NCBI GenBank assembly: GCA_963666835.2
Contig: CAXXGO010000006.1
Coordinates: forward strand, 1,504,001 to 1,568,000
Length of the DNA: 64,000 nt
Direction of reading: 5' to 3'
DNA from: Phycisphaerae bacterium
Lineage (GTDB): Bacteria; Planctomycetota; Phycisphaerae; UBA1845
Below are positions 30,001 through 36,000 of the stretch, piece after piece (position 1 is the first letter of the stretch; every line of letters begins with the position of its first letter). The position numbers are program-made.

Positions 30001-33000
30001 GCCGCTCGCCCGCTCGCGGCGGGTTACCGGTGATTTGCTGCTACGTAGACGCTCTCGTAGAATGCGGAACTCGACGTTCGAGACAGGAGTAACCCGGCGA
30101 TGACGATCGCTTTCAAACCGTATAATGCGATGACTCCCGAGGACTACGCAGACATCGGACTGCGCTGCGGGCTGGAGGTTCACCAACAGCTTCTCACGAA
30201 GACCAAGCTGTTCTGCCGCTGCCCCGCCGGTCGATATAGCGAGGCGTTCAACGCCGAGATCCTCCGGCACATGCGCCCGACTCTCTCCGAGCTGGGAGAG
30301 TATGACGGCACGGCCTTGATGGAGAAGAAGACGCGGAAGAACATCTATTACCGCATCCACCACGATACGGTATGTACGTACGAGTTCGACGACACCCCGC
30401 CGTTCTTCATCGCAGACGACGCTCTCGATTACGCCCTGCAAGTCGCAATGTTGCTTCGCTTGAACATCGTCAGCGAGTTGCACATCGCCCGTAAGCAGTA
30501 CCTGGACGGGTCGATTCCAACAGGGTTTCAGCGAACCACTATTGTGGGAGTGGACGGCTGGATCCCGTTCAAGGACCGCAAGATCCGGATCAGACAGCTC
30601 GGATTGGAAGAAGACGCCTGCCGAGAGGTCTCGGACATCGGCCACGACCGAGTCTACCTGACGGATCGGCTGGGCATGCCGCTCATCGAGCCGGTGACAG
30701 AGCCGGACATGCGCACCCCGGAAGAGGCGGCCCAGGTCGGAGAGATTCTCCGTCGCCTGTGTCGTAGCACCGGGAACGTCCGCACCGGGTATGGAGCCGG
30801 AAGACAGGACGTCAACGTCAGTGTGACCGGCGGCACCCGTATCGAAATCAAGGGCGTGCCCCAGCTCTGGCGGATTCCTCGCCTGGTTTATAACGAGGCT
30901 CGTCGGCAATGTTCCCTGCTGGCCATCCGCGACCAGTTGAAGGAGCGGGGCATCACGCCGGACACCTTCAAACACTACGTTGACGATGTTACTCGCATCG
31001 TCGCCAAGACCCAGTATGAGCCGATGCGGGCCGCCCTCCAGCGGGGTGATCGAGTGAAGTGCATAGTCCTGAAGGGCTTCGCCGGAATCCTCAATGAACC
31101 CACACAGGAGCACACGACGTTTGCCAAGGAATTCTCCGATCGCGCCCGCGTAATCGCCTGCCTGACGCGCCTGCCCAACATCATCCACTCGGACACGGCG
31201 TCCGAGTCCCTCTACGGCAAGGATTGGCAGAAGCTGCACCGCAAGATGAAGGCGGACCACGGCGATGCCCTGATCCTCGTCTGGGGCGACGAGGCGGACA
31301 CCCGCTGCGCCGCGGAGGAAATCGCCATTCGGGCGAAGGAAGCCACAATCGGCGTGCCCAGCGATACCAGACAGGGGCTCAAGGACGGCACTAACGGCTT
31401 CGAACGGGTCCTGCCGGGGGCCGATCGCATGTACCCGGACACGGATCTGCCGCCGATGGCGATTCCCAGCGAGCGCCTCGAACGGATTGCGGCCCGGCTT
31501 CCCGAGTATGTCTGGGATCGCGAACAACGATACCGATCAATGGGGCTGGGGGAGGAGCACATCGCCACGTTGTGCCTCTCGCGCAAGGCCGGTCTGTTCC
31601 AACGTCTCGTGGATGAGCTTAAGTGCGCTCCGACCTTCGCCGCAGTCGTTATCTGCGAGCGGCTCAAGGCCTTCCGGCGGGACGGCTTGGCCCTCGACCG
31701 GCTTGCCGACGACACCATCTTCGAGGTGTTCGAAGCCCATACGACCGGCCGGCTTGCCCGCGAAGGCGTGGTCGACGCTATCAGGAAACTCCTGACGAGC
31801 CGAAGTGATCCGGCCGCGGAACAGCTCACCGTGAGCGACATTCTTCAGCAGTACGCCCCCGTAACGGAAGATGAGTTGGCCGCCGACGTAACCCATACCG
31901 TTGCCCAATTGGATCGTTCCAACTTCAGCTCCGCGGATCAGGTTCGGCGCCATGCGATGGGCCTGTTGATGAGCAAGTTCCGCGGACGCGTGGATGGGAC
32001 GACGGTTGCCCGCCGGATCGAGCAGGTTCTGCCTCCCGAAGACGCAAGGGTCGCTGCTTCGTAGATCAAAGGTGAGAGAGTCGATACGGATCACGGGACA
32101 ATTGCGGTGGTCCATTTGCTCAGGAAGACAACATGAGTGACACAGCCCAGGGTTATCGCGGGATCGGAAAGGCCACGCTCGACAAGTACGACGTCTCCGT
32201 TTGGAGCGATGTCGAGGTGAACACCGATAACGGCAGCTTCCGCGGCATTATCCTACCGCGCTCAGAGACGGCCGACGAAAAGCACATCGTCTTGAAACTC
32301 ACCAGCGGCTATAACGTCGGCGTCGCGGCCGACTCGGTCACGAAAATCGTCCAGCACGGTCGGCGCGAAGCCCACTACAAGATCCCCGAGAAGGAGTTCC
32401 CCTACGACGCGGCAAAACCGAACGTCACCCTTTTCGGCACCGGCGGCACCATCGCCAGCCGTTTGGACTACCGCACCGGAGCGGTGATTCCCGCATTCTC
32501 TCCCGGTGAGTTGTACGGCTCGGTCCCCGAACTGGCGGACATCTGCAACCTCACCACCGAGAAGCTCTTCGGGGTCTTCAGCGAGAACATGGGTCCGCAG
32601 CAGTACATCCGTCTCGCCGAGCGAATCAAGGAGGTCATCGAGCAGGGGGTCAGCGGTATTGTCATCGGGCACGGTACCGACACCATGCACCACACCGCGG
32701 CCATCCTGAGCTTCATGGTGCAGGATTCACCCGTTCCCATAGTCATGGTCGGGTCTCAGCGTTCGTCCGACCGGCCCTCATCGGATGCGGCTATTAATCT
32801 GATAAACGCGGTCAAGGCGGCCGCGACGAGCGACATCGCCGAGGTCAGCGTATGCATGTTCGGGCCTACTTCGGATCAGTACTGTCTTTTGCACCGCGGC
32901 ACGCGCGTCCGCAAGATGCACTCCAGCTACCGATCGACTTTCCGAACGATTGGTGACATTCCTCTGGCAATGATCGATCCGGAGAAGATCGAACTTCTAC

Positions 33001-36000
33001 GAACGGACTACAAGCGTCGGCGGGATGATCGCAACGTGAAGATCAATACGGCCTTCGAAGAGAAGGTCACGATTCTCTACTACTACCCAAATATGATGCC
33101 CGACTTGGTCGATGCCATCGTCGACAAGGGCTACCGCGGTATTGTCATCGCTGGGACGGGCCTGGGCCACGTCAACCGTCCGCTCTATGCGGCGCTCGAG
33201 CGCGCCACTGCCAAGGGCGTACACATCTACATGACGGTTCAGACTTTGTGGGGTTACGTGCAGATGTACGTGTACGAAACCGGACGGGAGATTATGGGGC
33301 TGGGCGTGGTGCCGGCCGCCAATATGCTTCCGGAAGTCGCCTTCATGAAACTGTCCTGGGCGCTGGGGCAGTCCGATGACCGCGACGAGGTCCGCCGGAT
33401 CATGCTGACTCCGGTCTGCGACGAGATCACCGAGCGGGAGCCCTATAACGGCTACCTGATTTTTCAGGGCGAAATCCCCGAGGTGCAGGACTTCCTTCGC
33501 ACTATCAAACGCTGATTTCGTTCGGTGCGGCGGGAGGATCAACCGTCGCTACGCAGTCACGTTCACGATCGGGACGTTACTATCGGAAGAGCCCTCCGCG
33601 GAGTATTGCCCCGCGTCTAATGCGGAGGTGCCCCGGTCGTTTTGAGCGTGAGCGGAAAGCGTCATCGCTAAGCCCATAAAAATCGTTTCGTTCGAAATTC
33701 GCGTGAGCGCGCGCCTACGATTCTTCGTTTAGTTACCTTGAGGACTGCCGGCAGAAGGCTTTCCGTAAGTAGCATGAGGGGAGAGGGGTCGCGATTCCGC
33801 GGCCTCAGGTGCGCAACCGCCTGCCTGCAGACTGCCGTCCTTACGTAGCCCATAGCCCACGGGGTGAACTCCGGGGACTCCGTCTAAACACCTCGACCAG
33901 GTGTCGCGCGCGAGGTCTGCGCGCCGGGATCCCGGTCCATCTCCCCGGCAACCGAGCGAGGTGACACGATGAACCGCAGAAACGTCAGAACGGCCCTGGG
34001 ATTGTTGACGACCGTCGCAGCTTTTGGAGCCCCCGCCCTATCGGCGCGGGCGGCAATCCCCGCCGCCCGAGACGTTTACTACTACGTCTACTCCATCCCC
34101 GAGGATCTTACGAGTGACATTGCTCTGTCTGTACGGCTGAGCCTCACCGCGGTCGAGGTGGAGGGTTCCGCGGTCGGATGGGAGATCACCTACGCCGAGT
34201 TTCGCGAACCGGGAACTACATCGGAGGACGACGTAGTCTGGTACGCGGAATACCCGGCGGTCGACACGGCCGACGGTCTGTGGTGGGTTGAACACGCCGA
34301 TCCGTCCGCCCCGGTGCTTGCCGAATTCGCCACACCGCCGCGCTTGGTGGGCACGGCCACCGCAGTCGATTCGCAATATGCCGACCTTGAATACGATCTG
34401 CAGGGCGCCGTTGCCGTGTCCGAGACGGAAACAGAGACGAAAAGCACCAAGACTGCGCTGACTTTCAATATCCACGCCGCCGACACCGGAGAGACGATGT
34501 ACACCGGCGTTGCGGAAACGGTCAGCACAGGCGAGGACGAGCCGCCTACGATGGCCGGTTCGGGGACGGAGGCGGACTAACTCGACAACGCGAGTGTGCC
34601 TGTCAACGAGTTGCCAGGCCCGCTACGTGTAACGTCAGTCCGTACGGTTGGAAAACTCGGCCTCGCGCCTAGCGAGATACTCCAATACGGCGCGGACATC
34701 GCGGAGCGTCGTCGACACATCCCGGCTGCGCGGAGCAGACTTGCCGGACTCGACAAGCCCAAGCACACGTCGCTCCGCCCGTTCCAGGAGGTCGCGCGCA
34801 AGCTCGTAGAGTTCGGGATCGTGCAAGAACAAATGCCCGATGGCTATCCTTGCCTCGGTCCTAGACAACTCTATCGTATAGTCGAGTGAATCCGGATCGG
34901 CCTGGTAGAGCATCTGCAGGATCTCGCGTGCAGCAGAGTAACATTGGATAGCCTCACCAAATGCCCGCGTTCCCTGGCGGCTCTCGCCATCTTGACCGAG
35001 CGCGACAGCTAGCTCGAAACTCAAGCTGGCATTATCAGGATCAGCGCCAAGCAACGCGCGACGAGTCGACACTACTTTCTGAAGGTCTCGCCGTGCGAAC
35101 TCCCACTCGTCACGAGCCATCGCCAACCGCGCGCGCGACGCGAGCGCGTCGGCTAGCGACCGCTGCCACTCGAGGTTCTCCGGCTCTCTCCGCACTAACT
35201 CCTCGGCCAAGGACATGAGACTCTGAAAATGCGGCTCGGCCTCATCCAGCTTCCCTTCTTCGAGCAGCAAGGTCCCGATACGGTGGTGCGCGCCAATGCG
35301 ATAGCGATCAACGACCGGGTCACCCGCAACGTCATCCCCGGCGAGTTCCAGGGCCTTCTCGAACATCGCCATGGCCTGTTCCAGACGACCCTCGTCGCGT
35401 TCTACTGCACCGAGTTTCAGATACGAGCCCATCTGGAGTCCCGCCTGGTAGATTCGCGCTTGGGTTTCAGCTCTCTGCCGTTGGGTTTCCGCTCTTTGCC
35501 ACAGAATCCCCATGCCCACCGCGGACCCGATCACCAGCAAGAGAAACGCGGCGGCAATCGCCACCTGCAAGCGAAAGCGGCGGATCGTTTTGCCGAGCAC
35601 GTAAAACGCATTCGCCGACTTCGCCTCCACGGCATCACCGGCCAGGTAGCGGCCGAGATCTTCCGCGAGCGCCGCAACCGACTGGTACCGGTCCCCCTTA
35701 TCCTTCTCCAGGGTCTTCAGGAGAATGGCTTCGAGATCGCCACTCATCTCCCGGCGGGTGAAGCCTCCGTCCAGACTCTCGTCGCTCAAGGCCTTCCGCG
35801 GTGGAATCGGCTCTCGGCCCACAATGTTGTTCTGCACGTCGAGCGGCGCCCCCTCCACCGGGTACGGGAAGCTGCCGGTGAGTATCTCGTATAGCACCAC
35901 TCCAAGGGAGTAGATGTCGGATCGAACATCCACATCGTCTACCGCGCCGCGGGCCTGCTCCGGGCTCAGATACGGTAGGGTGCCCACAACCTGCCCGGTC

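Follow-up and report, generated by a model that had tools for sequence, protein, structure and literature searches.

We found that a stretch of 64,000 nucleotides from a Phycisphaerae bacterium of order UBA1845 (here called the window) carries adjacent genes for GatE and GatD. In our judgement there is a slightly better than even chance that they encode a functional amidotransferase for Glu-tRNA(Gln), one that belongs to a separate and largely bacterial branch of GatDE, is adapted to bacterial tRNA and fed by Gln or Asn, and serves as a back-up to a probably non-discriminating GluRS. The single GluRS of the host, having Gly at the position of Arg358, would charge some tRNA-Gln with Glu, whereupon GatE would bind this U1-A72 Glu-tRNA-Gln via a remodelled first-base-pair pocket and phosphorylate the tRNA-bound Glu with ATP, with ammonia released by GatD from either Gln or Asn being passed to GatE for formation of Gln-tRNA(Gln). 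GlnRS would thus remain the main route, with GatDE as a back-up and clean-up route overlapping that of GatCAB, an overlap that would make loss of GatCAB possible in those members of the order where GatDE is present. The locus in the window is an ordinary member of the branch, and its value lies in the family-level pattern.

The gatE-gatD locus and its products

As the initial annotation had it, both proteins are full length and high scoring, with GatE reaching 543 bits with NF003107 (cut-off 456) and 482 with TIGR00134 (cut-off 320), GatD reaching 515 with NF003217 (cut-off 310) and 513 with TIGR02153 (cut-off 324), and 68 nt separating the two open reading frames. The Pfam domains were GatB_N and GAD in GatE, and GatD_N, Asparaginase and Asparaginase_C in GatD, and the nearest solved structures, both by sequence and by fold, were 1ZQ1 and 2D6F. 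The predicted structure of GatE (pLDDT 89.7) has a helical, YqeY-like C-terminal tail scoring under the Pfam cut-off; its GAD insertion, at about residues 310–400, gave 34.9 bits with PF02938 (cut-off 23.4), and AspRS chains were weak matches in the fold search. GatE could not be taken for the GatB of a GatCAB complex, as GatB models gave 67–160 bits, far under their cut-offs, and true gatCAB genes lie elsewhere. GatD, the sole asparaginase-motif protein detected in the genome, did pass the type I asparaginase model TIGR00519 (385 bits), but we rejected a stand-alone asparaginase with regards to the higher scores of the GatD models, the GatD_N domain and the adjacent gatE.

GatD retains TGGT106, HGT182D183T and K261, of which T106, T182, D183 and K261 align with 1ZQ1 and 2D6F and are what we take to be the Thr nucleophile and the Thr-Lys-Asp triad of archaeal GatD. 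The Mg-binding residues of GatE are likewise retained in the alignment (H28, E170 and E197, being His15, Glu157 and Glu184 in the M. thermautotrophicus numbering), and every catalytic residue of GatE and GatD named together with these in PMC2330236 is conserved. Comparing the window genome with matching non-planctomycete loci, GatD identity was 67–76%, which indicates strong selection. These features suggest that the GatDE pair is an active tRNA-dependent amidotransferase.

Table 1. Features of the gatE-gatD locus (positions in the window)
Feature	Position	Strand	Remarks
GC-rich hairpin, then T run	29686..29724	+	likely terminator of upstream collagen-like gene
Promoter-like element TTGCTG-17 nt-TAGAAT	30035..30063	+	5' of gatE
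Shine-Dalgarno AGGAG	30085..30089	+	10 nt ahead of gatE ATG
gatE	30100..32064	+	654 aa, ORF open; kinase/amidation subunit
gatD	32133..33515	+	460 aa, ORF open; GatD_N + type I asparaginase fold

The likely terminator, having a folding energy of -33.8 kcal/mol while being missed by a simple terminator scanner, sets gatE apart from the collagen-like gene upstream. The pattern TTG-N19..21-TAnnnT, picked post hoc when the sequences had already been seen, occurred in 25 of 29 gatE upstream regions (the window and 28 loci selected as closer relatives), compared to a mean of 0.6 and a maximum of 5 in shuffled sequences, and a motif like AGGAG precedes gatE in most relatives. Apart from promoter and Shine-Dalgarno, no conserved leader was found among the upstream regions, and positions 29600-34000, examined for a leader RNA or T-box, gave no Rfam match. 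Among 2,279 long ORFs, the two genes ranked at the 91st and 84th percentile for codon adaptation (gatB at the 34th), and this high adaptation, together with the conserved promoter-like element, supports gatE-gatD as a long-resident pair in the host genome. That the pair was recently acquired from an archaeon, or is a contaminant, which only the textbook distribution of GatDE would favour, can be regarded as refuted: both GC content and codon usage, the latter now compared, are host-like in agreement with the earlier view that contamination is unlikely, bacterial relatives number in the hundreds at 45–83% identity, and a contig from a separate study likewise joins gatD to the downstream planctomycete-type kinase and sigma genes.

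Distribution of the branch and loss of parallel routes

The GatE of the window falls in one well-supported branch spanning many bacterial phyla and one Thermoplasmata group, with records from Calditrichia, Bacteroidetes, Ignavibacteria, Lentisphaerae, Deltaproteobacteria, Zixibacteria-labelled and CSSED10-310 entries in addition to Thermoplasmata. Of the earlier proposal of an old transfer kept in part of order UBA1845, the long residence stands, but the branch is not confined to that order, in which GatE exceeded the cut-off in 28 of 121 sampled genomes, with one further partial match. Around the active site the branch has private invariant residues (RHM, CTYE.DD.PPF, RKQYLDGSIP and YPDTD), several of them common to Heimdall- and other Asgard-labelled GatE. 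In one cluster (P0156) GatE and GatD are fused and the tail is missing. GatDE has been called an archaeal signature protein, or archaea-only, from 2008 to 2022 (PMC2330236, PMC2811023, PMC8007984, PMC8762117, PMC9499178), a view contradicted by this large and conserved bacterial branch. NCBI protein labels already name these bacterial proteins as GatDE; in the titles, abstract openings and passages searched we found no report of bacterial GatDE, with subscription papers and supplements, whose tables may hold it, lying outside that scope.

When the GatE tree was rooted with GatB, the root shifted with the alignment columns used; the outgroup consisted solely of bacterial GatB, and the archaeal sequences were an unbalanced sample of best matches to the query. 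With a root so unstable, the branch may be either an archaeal transfer or an ancient relic. A more far-reaching proposal, which we regard as speculative and doubtful, is that this GatDE branch is widespread, has become adjusted to tRNA with U1-A72 and forms a second bacterial amidotransferase that can fully substitute for GatCAB on Glu-tRNA(Gln) and perhaps also on Asp-tRNA(Asn), with the linked AsnA or GlnA as its source of amide nitrogen. In this view the branch did not arise by transfer from the typical archaeal GatDE but is sister to them all. If that sister position were true, GatDE would have been present in the last universal ancestor and would no longer be an archaeal signature protein. 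The bacterial branch makes two questions testable, namely whether the universal ancestor already had GatDE and for what reason indirect routes are kept beside GlnRS and AsnRS.

The window genome itself has such parallel routes, as had been claimed, with GatB, GlnRS, AsnRS and AspRS above cut-offs in profile searches, GatA and GluRS recognised by motif, and GatC by its position adjoining gatA. The protein labelled class II Asn/Asp-type was rightly seen as AsnRS-like and is a genuine AsnRS (NF003037, 522 bits, cut-off 414). The supposed GlnRS/YqeY fusion, however, lacks the YqeY tail, aligning only to positions 8–566 of the 769-position fusion model, where its ORF stops.

Both gatA and gatB were absent in 6 of 29 GatE-positive but 0 of 92 GatE-negative genomes of the order (n=121; p 7e-4, which overstates the case because the six losses occur among kin). 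These six, spread over three families, belong to seven genomes devoid of GatB; the seventh (G065) retained GatA, so that its GatB is probably missing through an assembly gap. GatA was found in all four GatB-positive control genomes, and GatD was confirmed in all four tested of the six GatCAB-less genomes. In this order GatDE hence appears able to stand in for GatCAB. In an Ignavibacteria-like phylum (115 genomes), unlike in the order, GatB loss shows no link to GatE (26/71 vs 14/44 by GatE status, p 0.69). Among genomes picked from the same phylum, GlnRS was absent in 15 of 39 with GatB and in 1 of 41 without; 15 of the 16 GlnRS-less genomes thus kept GatCAB, a contrast not significant within GatE-positive genomes alone (p 0.15). 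With GlnRS loss nearly confined to GatB-positive genomes, GatDE would rarely if ever permit it. Both results from this second phylum speak against our preferred reading. One single metagenome bin (G200) had GatD and GatE with GatA, GatB and GlnRS undetectable.

The neighbours of gatDE point to the Glu/Gln axis, which supports a back-up role in Gln-tRNA formation. The glnA gene adjoins gatDE in 11 of 135 loci, is one gene off in one and a remnant in another, in at least three lineages, and gatE-gatD-gltX is followed by tRNA-Gln in two genomes (G213 and G191), with gatE and gltX also linked in G234. Linkage recurs to asnA, glnA, ilvC, peptidases and oligopeptide transporters, with asnA directly adjoining gatE in no fewer than three loci, one of them that of GatCAB-less G036, and asnA remnants lying 3' of gatD in three more. 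Neither aspS, asnS, gatA/B/C nor tRNA-Asn was a neighbour in 110 loci, and no conserved third gene or biosynthetic neighbour was seen across the loci compared.

Recognition of tRNA and alternative functions

Both host tRNA-Gln genes have U1-A72, as previously noted, A1-U72 being seen in tRNA-Trp alone among the host tRNAs read by eye, and tRNA-Gln(CUG) had U1-A72 in 5 of 5 GatCAB-less genomes. A Gln found in the GatE pocket of 74 of 77 archaeal proteins is missing from the bacterial branch in the alignment; the window GatE has P254 there, the branch has Pro in 25 and Ser in 11 of 45 members, and Thermoplasmata-like proteins have Pro, Ser or Cys in 107 of 107. This position aligns with the GatB loop whose contacts were placed at the tRNA 1-72 pair (PMC2811023). 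The branch GatE may therefore be fitted to bacterial U1-A72 tRNA through a remodelled pocket, and the earlier objection that GatDE needs A1-U72, correct as to the host tRNA-Gln, is weakened because the branch changed the residue at that very pocket.

That the single host GluRS is probably non-discriminating is suggested by the Gly at the Arg358 position, found in all seven genomes of the order typed, considering the role of Arg358 in the discriminating Thermus GluRS (PMC2978374). As proof of discrimination this residue failed its control, with Arg in 10 of 10 GlnRS-less genomes, and the Gly may be an order trait only.

The branch GatDE could instead be an Asp-tRNA(Asn) amidotransferase, or have dual Glu/Asp specificity like GatCAB, and serve as an asparagine route, which we find rather unlikely yet worth serious consideration. 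GatCAB beside GlnRS usually serves Asn synthesis, and GatDE mostly occurs with GlnRS and appears able to replace GatCAB. The host tRNA-Asn shares U1-A72 and a short D-loop without extra base with tRNA-Gln, and the tail motif GXXAXGX, to which the rejection of Asp-tRNA(Asn) is ascribed, is lost, being found in 0 of 43 branch members; both points speak against our preferred reading, the motif with the restriction that its pattern finds just 29 of 72 archaeal proteins. Neither AsnA nor an E. coli-type AsnB above cut-off was found in the window genome. Against such an asparagine route, GatDE does not fill in where asparagine synthetases are lacking: AsnB-like genes, mostly not of E. coli type and uncertain as to Asn synthesis, are commoner with GatE (40/49 vs 13/31), opposite to what an AsnB replacement would give, and asnA, its presence checked in only five genomes, can lie beside gatE, while aspS, asnS and tRNA-Asn were not seen as neighbours in 110 loci. 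A His/Leu marker in AspRS failed its control and was uninformative, with His in 8 of 13 genomes without amidotransferase and 5 of 59 rows unparsable, and a literature search gave no paper support for it. The GAD insertion, by modelling held responsible for archaeal GatDE binding GluRS and not AspRS (PMC2943598), is also kept.

It is less probable still that GatDE works mainly in nitrogen metabolism, transferring to Glu-tRNA(Gln) the amide nitrogen of Asn that AsnA makes or peptides supply, and thereby allowing Gln codons to be read while free Gln is too low for GlnRS. Such a role would agree with the recurrent asnA, glnA, ilvC, peptidase and transporter linkage, with GatD as sole asparaginase-motif protein, with retention of GatDE where both GlnRS and GatCAB are present, and with the nearly equal use of Asn and Gln by archaeal GatDE (PMC2330236), but the window operon lacks such neighbours, and glutamine synthetase, present in 5/5 GatE-positive and 5/5 GatE-negative genomes tested, is not replaced. 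Most improbable of these three is a pair working outside translation, amidating a non-tRNA carboxylate or acting as tRNA-independent asparaginase or glutaminase; the many private invariant residues, the divergent tail and the tail-less fusion could be read so, but several of those residues are shared with Asgard-labelled GatE, the helical tail is found in 43 of 45 branch members, and linkage to gltX and tRNA-Gln comes with no conserved biosynthetic neighbour. The non-tRNA substrate suggested by the initial annotation has no positive evidence, while its view of a main job other than routine Gln-tRNA supply is probably correct, with the back-up role fitting best.

Comparison with known amidotransferase systems

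New here are the link to GatCAB loss in the order, the absence of the pocket Gln together with U1-A72 host tRNA-Gln, and the neighbour pattern. An enzyme pair with changed first-base-pair reading would constitute a natural experiment in tRNA recognition. Precedents for components of aminoacylation of archaeal kind among uncultured bacteria are archaeal-type SepRS/SepCysS and archaeal TyrRS/TrpRS identities (PMC5424206, PMC5370408), which concern other amino acids; a term search of PMC5370408 gave no mention of amidotransferases. With archaeal GatDE (2D6F of Methanothermobacter thermautotrophicus, 1ZQ1 of Pyrococcus abyssi) the window pair shares full-length subunits, fold, GAD insertion, GatD_N and catalytic residues, but its host is a bacterium with GlnRS, AsnRS and GatCAB, so that it is not the sole Gln-tRNA route, the tRNA-Gln has U1-A72 instead of A1-U72, and the branch, which forms a clade apart and has private invariant residues, has Pro or Ser for the pocket Gln and no GxxAxG tail motif. 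Bacterial GatCAB has the same chemistry, a homologous GatB/GatE core and the U1-A72 substrate here proposed for GatDE, with which it co-occurs, being lost in this order only where GatDE is present; the branch differs from it in having an asparaginase-type GatD instead of the amidase GatA with GatC, a GAD insertion, and a short GatE-type loop at the place of the 3-10 turn of bacterial GatB.

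The gatE–gatD pair and its genomic setting

The two adjacent open reading frames annotated initially as GatE and GatD were indeed both full length and passed the curated cut-offs for these proteins. For both, the nearest solved relatives by sequence were the archaeal GatDE structures 1ZQ1 and 2D6F, which were also closest by fold in a search with an AlphaFold model (pLDDT 89.7; input alignment of 40 sequences). GatE residues H28, E170 and E197 were retained, aligning to His15, Glu157 and Glu184, the Mg-binding residues in the consulted excerpt of PMC2330236, and the asparaginase Thr and the Thr-Asp-Lys positions were retained in the GatD alignment. 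The GAD insertion was likewise retained in the mostly bacterial GatE branch that includes this protein (hereafter the clade); for archaeal GatDE, an excerpt of PMC2943598 gives GluRS, not AspRS, as the partner. The pair is a member of the GatDE protein family, with a predicted mode of action as that of archaeal GatDE.

The GC content was flat across the locus, and among 2,279 long ORFs codon adaptation of gatE and gatD lay at the 91st and 84th percentiles (glnS 81, gltX 90, gatB 34). A contig from an independent study had gatD contiguous with the same downstream kinase and sigma factor genes. Contamination, earlier considered unlikely, or recent import could be excluded on these grounds. The cassette itself lies isolated, flanked by a collagen-like gene on one side and a gene without known family on the other. 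A terminator-like hairpin ends the gene upstream of gatE, and a TTG-N-TAnnnT element lies 5' of gatE, as in 25 of 29 upstream regions including this one (shuffle mean 0.6).

Features in the window around the gatE–gatD pair
Feature	Position (nt)	Strand	Remarks
cysteine desulfurase-like and selenophosphate synthetase-like genes	18956-21402	+	read by eye
PEP-CTERM protein	26653-27519	-	upstream of operon; domain/model search
collagen-repeat lipoprotein-like gene	28348-29625	+	upstream of operon; domain/model search
gatE	30100-32064	+	
gatD	32133-33515	+	
planctomycete-type ECF sigma factor and Ser/Thr kinase with TPR repeats	34635-37602	-	domain/model search
cysteine-rich protein, 1,516 aa, probably secreted	38965-43515	-	
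tRNA-Pro(CGG)	44400-44474	-	

Parallel routes and patterns of gene loss

As annotated initially, other routes exist alongside GatDE, with the genome (G000) encoding a single GluRS, GlnRS, GatA, GatB, AspRS and AsnRS; a GatC-sized ORF adjoins gatA, and gatA and gatB are unlinked. The GlnRS, described before as a YqeY fusion, carries no YqeY tail. A glutamine synthetase-like protein scored below cut-off, two AsnB-like proteins differed from the E. coli type, and AsnA was not found in this genome, which also carries tRNA-Sec. The AsnRS (G000:C6:1858280-1859911) and those of nearly all genomes of the order, UBA1845, matched the model in two pieces, which suggests an order-wide insertion; four order genomes had an AsnRS of an unsplit, higher-scoring type.

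Both tRNA-Gln genes were confirmed to have U1-A72, as did tRNA-Asn, and all three have a short D-loop. The tRNA-Gln(CUG) (G000:C6:688760-688834) has a G3-U70 wobble pair, an alanine identity element in other systems; the same tRNA of G120 and G058 has G3-C70. Both tRNA-Glu genes (G000:C6:870715-870787 and 1115969-1116041) have G1-U72 instead of G1-C72 and two extra D-loop bases.

Among 121 order genomes (109 with ≥90% completeness and ≤5% contamination), GatE was above cut-off in 28, with one further partial match, GlnRS matched in 114 and AsnRS in 118. GatDE of this kind, earlier read as kept in part of this order, also occurs beyond it, in other phyla. GatB was absent from seven order genomes, of which six, spread over three families, had GatE and lacked GatA, the seventh retaining GatA; loss of both gatA and gatB was thus seen in 6/29 genomes with GatE vs 0/92 without (GatA checked in the seven GatB-less genomes and four controls). 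All six GatCAB-less genomes retained GlnRS and AsnRS, and tRNA-Gln(CUG) had U1-A72 in the five tested. At the position of Arg358, a Thermus GluRS residue tied to discrimination, Gly, which we used as a weak sign of a relaxed GluRS, was found in all five GatCAB-less genomes where GluRS was found, in G000 and in G065.

A second phylum was reached via Ignavibacteriales- and Zixibacteria-titled loci, with two overlapping samples (115 distinct genomes) having GatE above cut-off in 47/71 and 49/91. Here loss of GatB was unrelated to GatE (26/71 vs 14/44), with absences checked directly and most presences inferred from weak GatB matches. Among 80 genomes picked by class, GlnRS was absent in 15/39 GatB-positive vs 1/41 GatB-negative ones, and GluRS had Arg at the Arg358 position even in GlnRS-less genomes. 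In one case only, the single bin G200, GatD and GatE were detected and searches for GatA, GatB and GlnRS found none, so that GatDE would be its only route. From the gene-loss patterns in the order and the second phylum we therefore conclude that GatDE is dispensable, that it generally does not free cells from GlnRS, and that visible substitution for GatCAB is limited to the order, where GluRS looks relaxed. Two full GluRS genes each were seen in G213 and G121. GatE, GatB and any AsnB-like match were all absent from G186, G174, G195, G202, G205, G209 and G212, which would need AsnA or outside asparagine.

Gene neighbours and predicted substrate

In a survey of 135 partly non-independent gatDE loci, glnA was adjacent in 11, one gene off in one and a remnant in one, these loci belonging to Phycisphaerae, a Thermoplasmata-like contig and one further lineage. 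In at least three loci, including that of the GatCAB-less G036, asnA adjoins gatDE, and asnA remnants lie 3' of gatD in three more. One locus (L297:2010-7035) reads glnA-gatE-gatD-broken asnA remnant, with a one-base contact of glnA and gatE; in another (L295), gatE and gatD are divergently oriented, with glnA 3' of gatE. The order gatE-gatD-gltX, then tRNA-Gln, was found in G213 and G191, one of the two GluRS genes of G213 being directly behind gatD, and gatE..gltX in G234; these three may be a single lineage. Neither aspS, asnS, gatCAB nor tRNA-Asn was found as a neighbour in 110 loci, and AsnB-like genes were commoner with GatE (40/49 genomes) than without (13/31). Based on these neighbour and AsnB-like gene counts, we favour Glu-tRNA(Gln) as predicted substrate, with either Gln or Asn as the donor, rather than participation in Asn synthesis; dual specificity is possible. 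Other loci were flanked by peptidases and oligopeptide transporters, and ilvC (ketol-acid reductoisomerase) lay directly 5' of gatE in L010, L025 and L035.

Origin of the clade and comparison with canonical GatDE

The 80 retained related loci had mostly Phycisphaerae or Planctomycetota titles, the rest including Calditrichia, Bacteroidetes, Ignavibacteria, Zixibacteria and Lentisphaerae, and a separate search added Deltaproteobacteria and CSSED10-310 names. Of 123 near-full-length GatE, 45 formed the clade (FastTree support 1.0), with a Heimdallarchaeota-labelled branch closest outside. A large group with Thermoplasmata names plus one Bacteroidetes name also fell within the clade, close to its base. 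Members of the Thermoplasmata-named group include proteins P0384, P0444 and P0501 and loci L294 and L295; P0156 is a natural GatE-GatD fusion of 943 aa without the GatE helical tail. With bacterial GatB as the only outgroup, shared-core columns placed the clade apart from every typical GatE of Archaea (FastTree 0.90; IQ-TREE SH-aLRT 72, the IQ-TREE runs leaving out 19/57 rows), all columns grouped it with Heimdall (support 0.83), and the AU test did not reject the latter grouping (p 0.58). Both transfer from Archaea and an ancestral relic are possible origins.

Around the active site, numerous invariant residues are private to the clade, although some of them are common to Asgard-labelled GatE. 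After the EIKGV motif, Gln follows in 74/77 typical archaeal and 30/30 Heimdall-group rows; the clade never has Gln there, the present GatE having Pro. We take this Gln itself to touch base pair 1-72 in 2D6F. The position aligned to the GatB loop which, in the consulted excerpt of PMC2811023, forms one wall of the 1-72 base-pair pocket. A GxxAxG tail motif, tied in the same excerpt to exclusion of Asp-tRNA(Asn), occurred in 0/43 clade members and 29/72 archaeal rows.

GatDE is described as archaea-only in excerpts of PMC2330236, PMC2811023, PMC8007984, PMC8762117 and PMC9499178, a survey of 366 bacterial genomes (PMC3927822) does not mention it, and our open-access literature search found no paper on bacterial GatDE; NCBI annotation already names such bacterial proteins GatE. 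The present locus is an ordinary member of a family-level exception, undescribed and testable. Canonical archaeal GatDE works with an A1-U72 tRNA-Gln and provides the only path to Gln-tRNA in an archaeon that lacks GlnRS, whereas the present pair resides in a bacterium that has GlnRS and whose tRNA-Gln lacks A1-U72.
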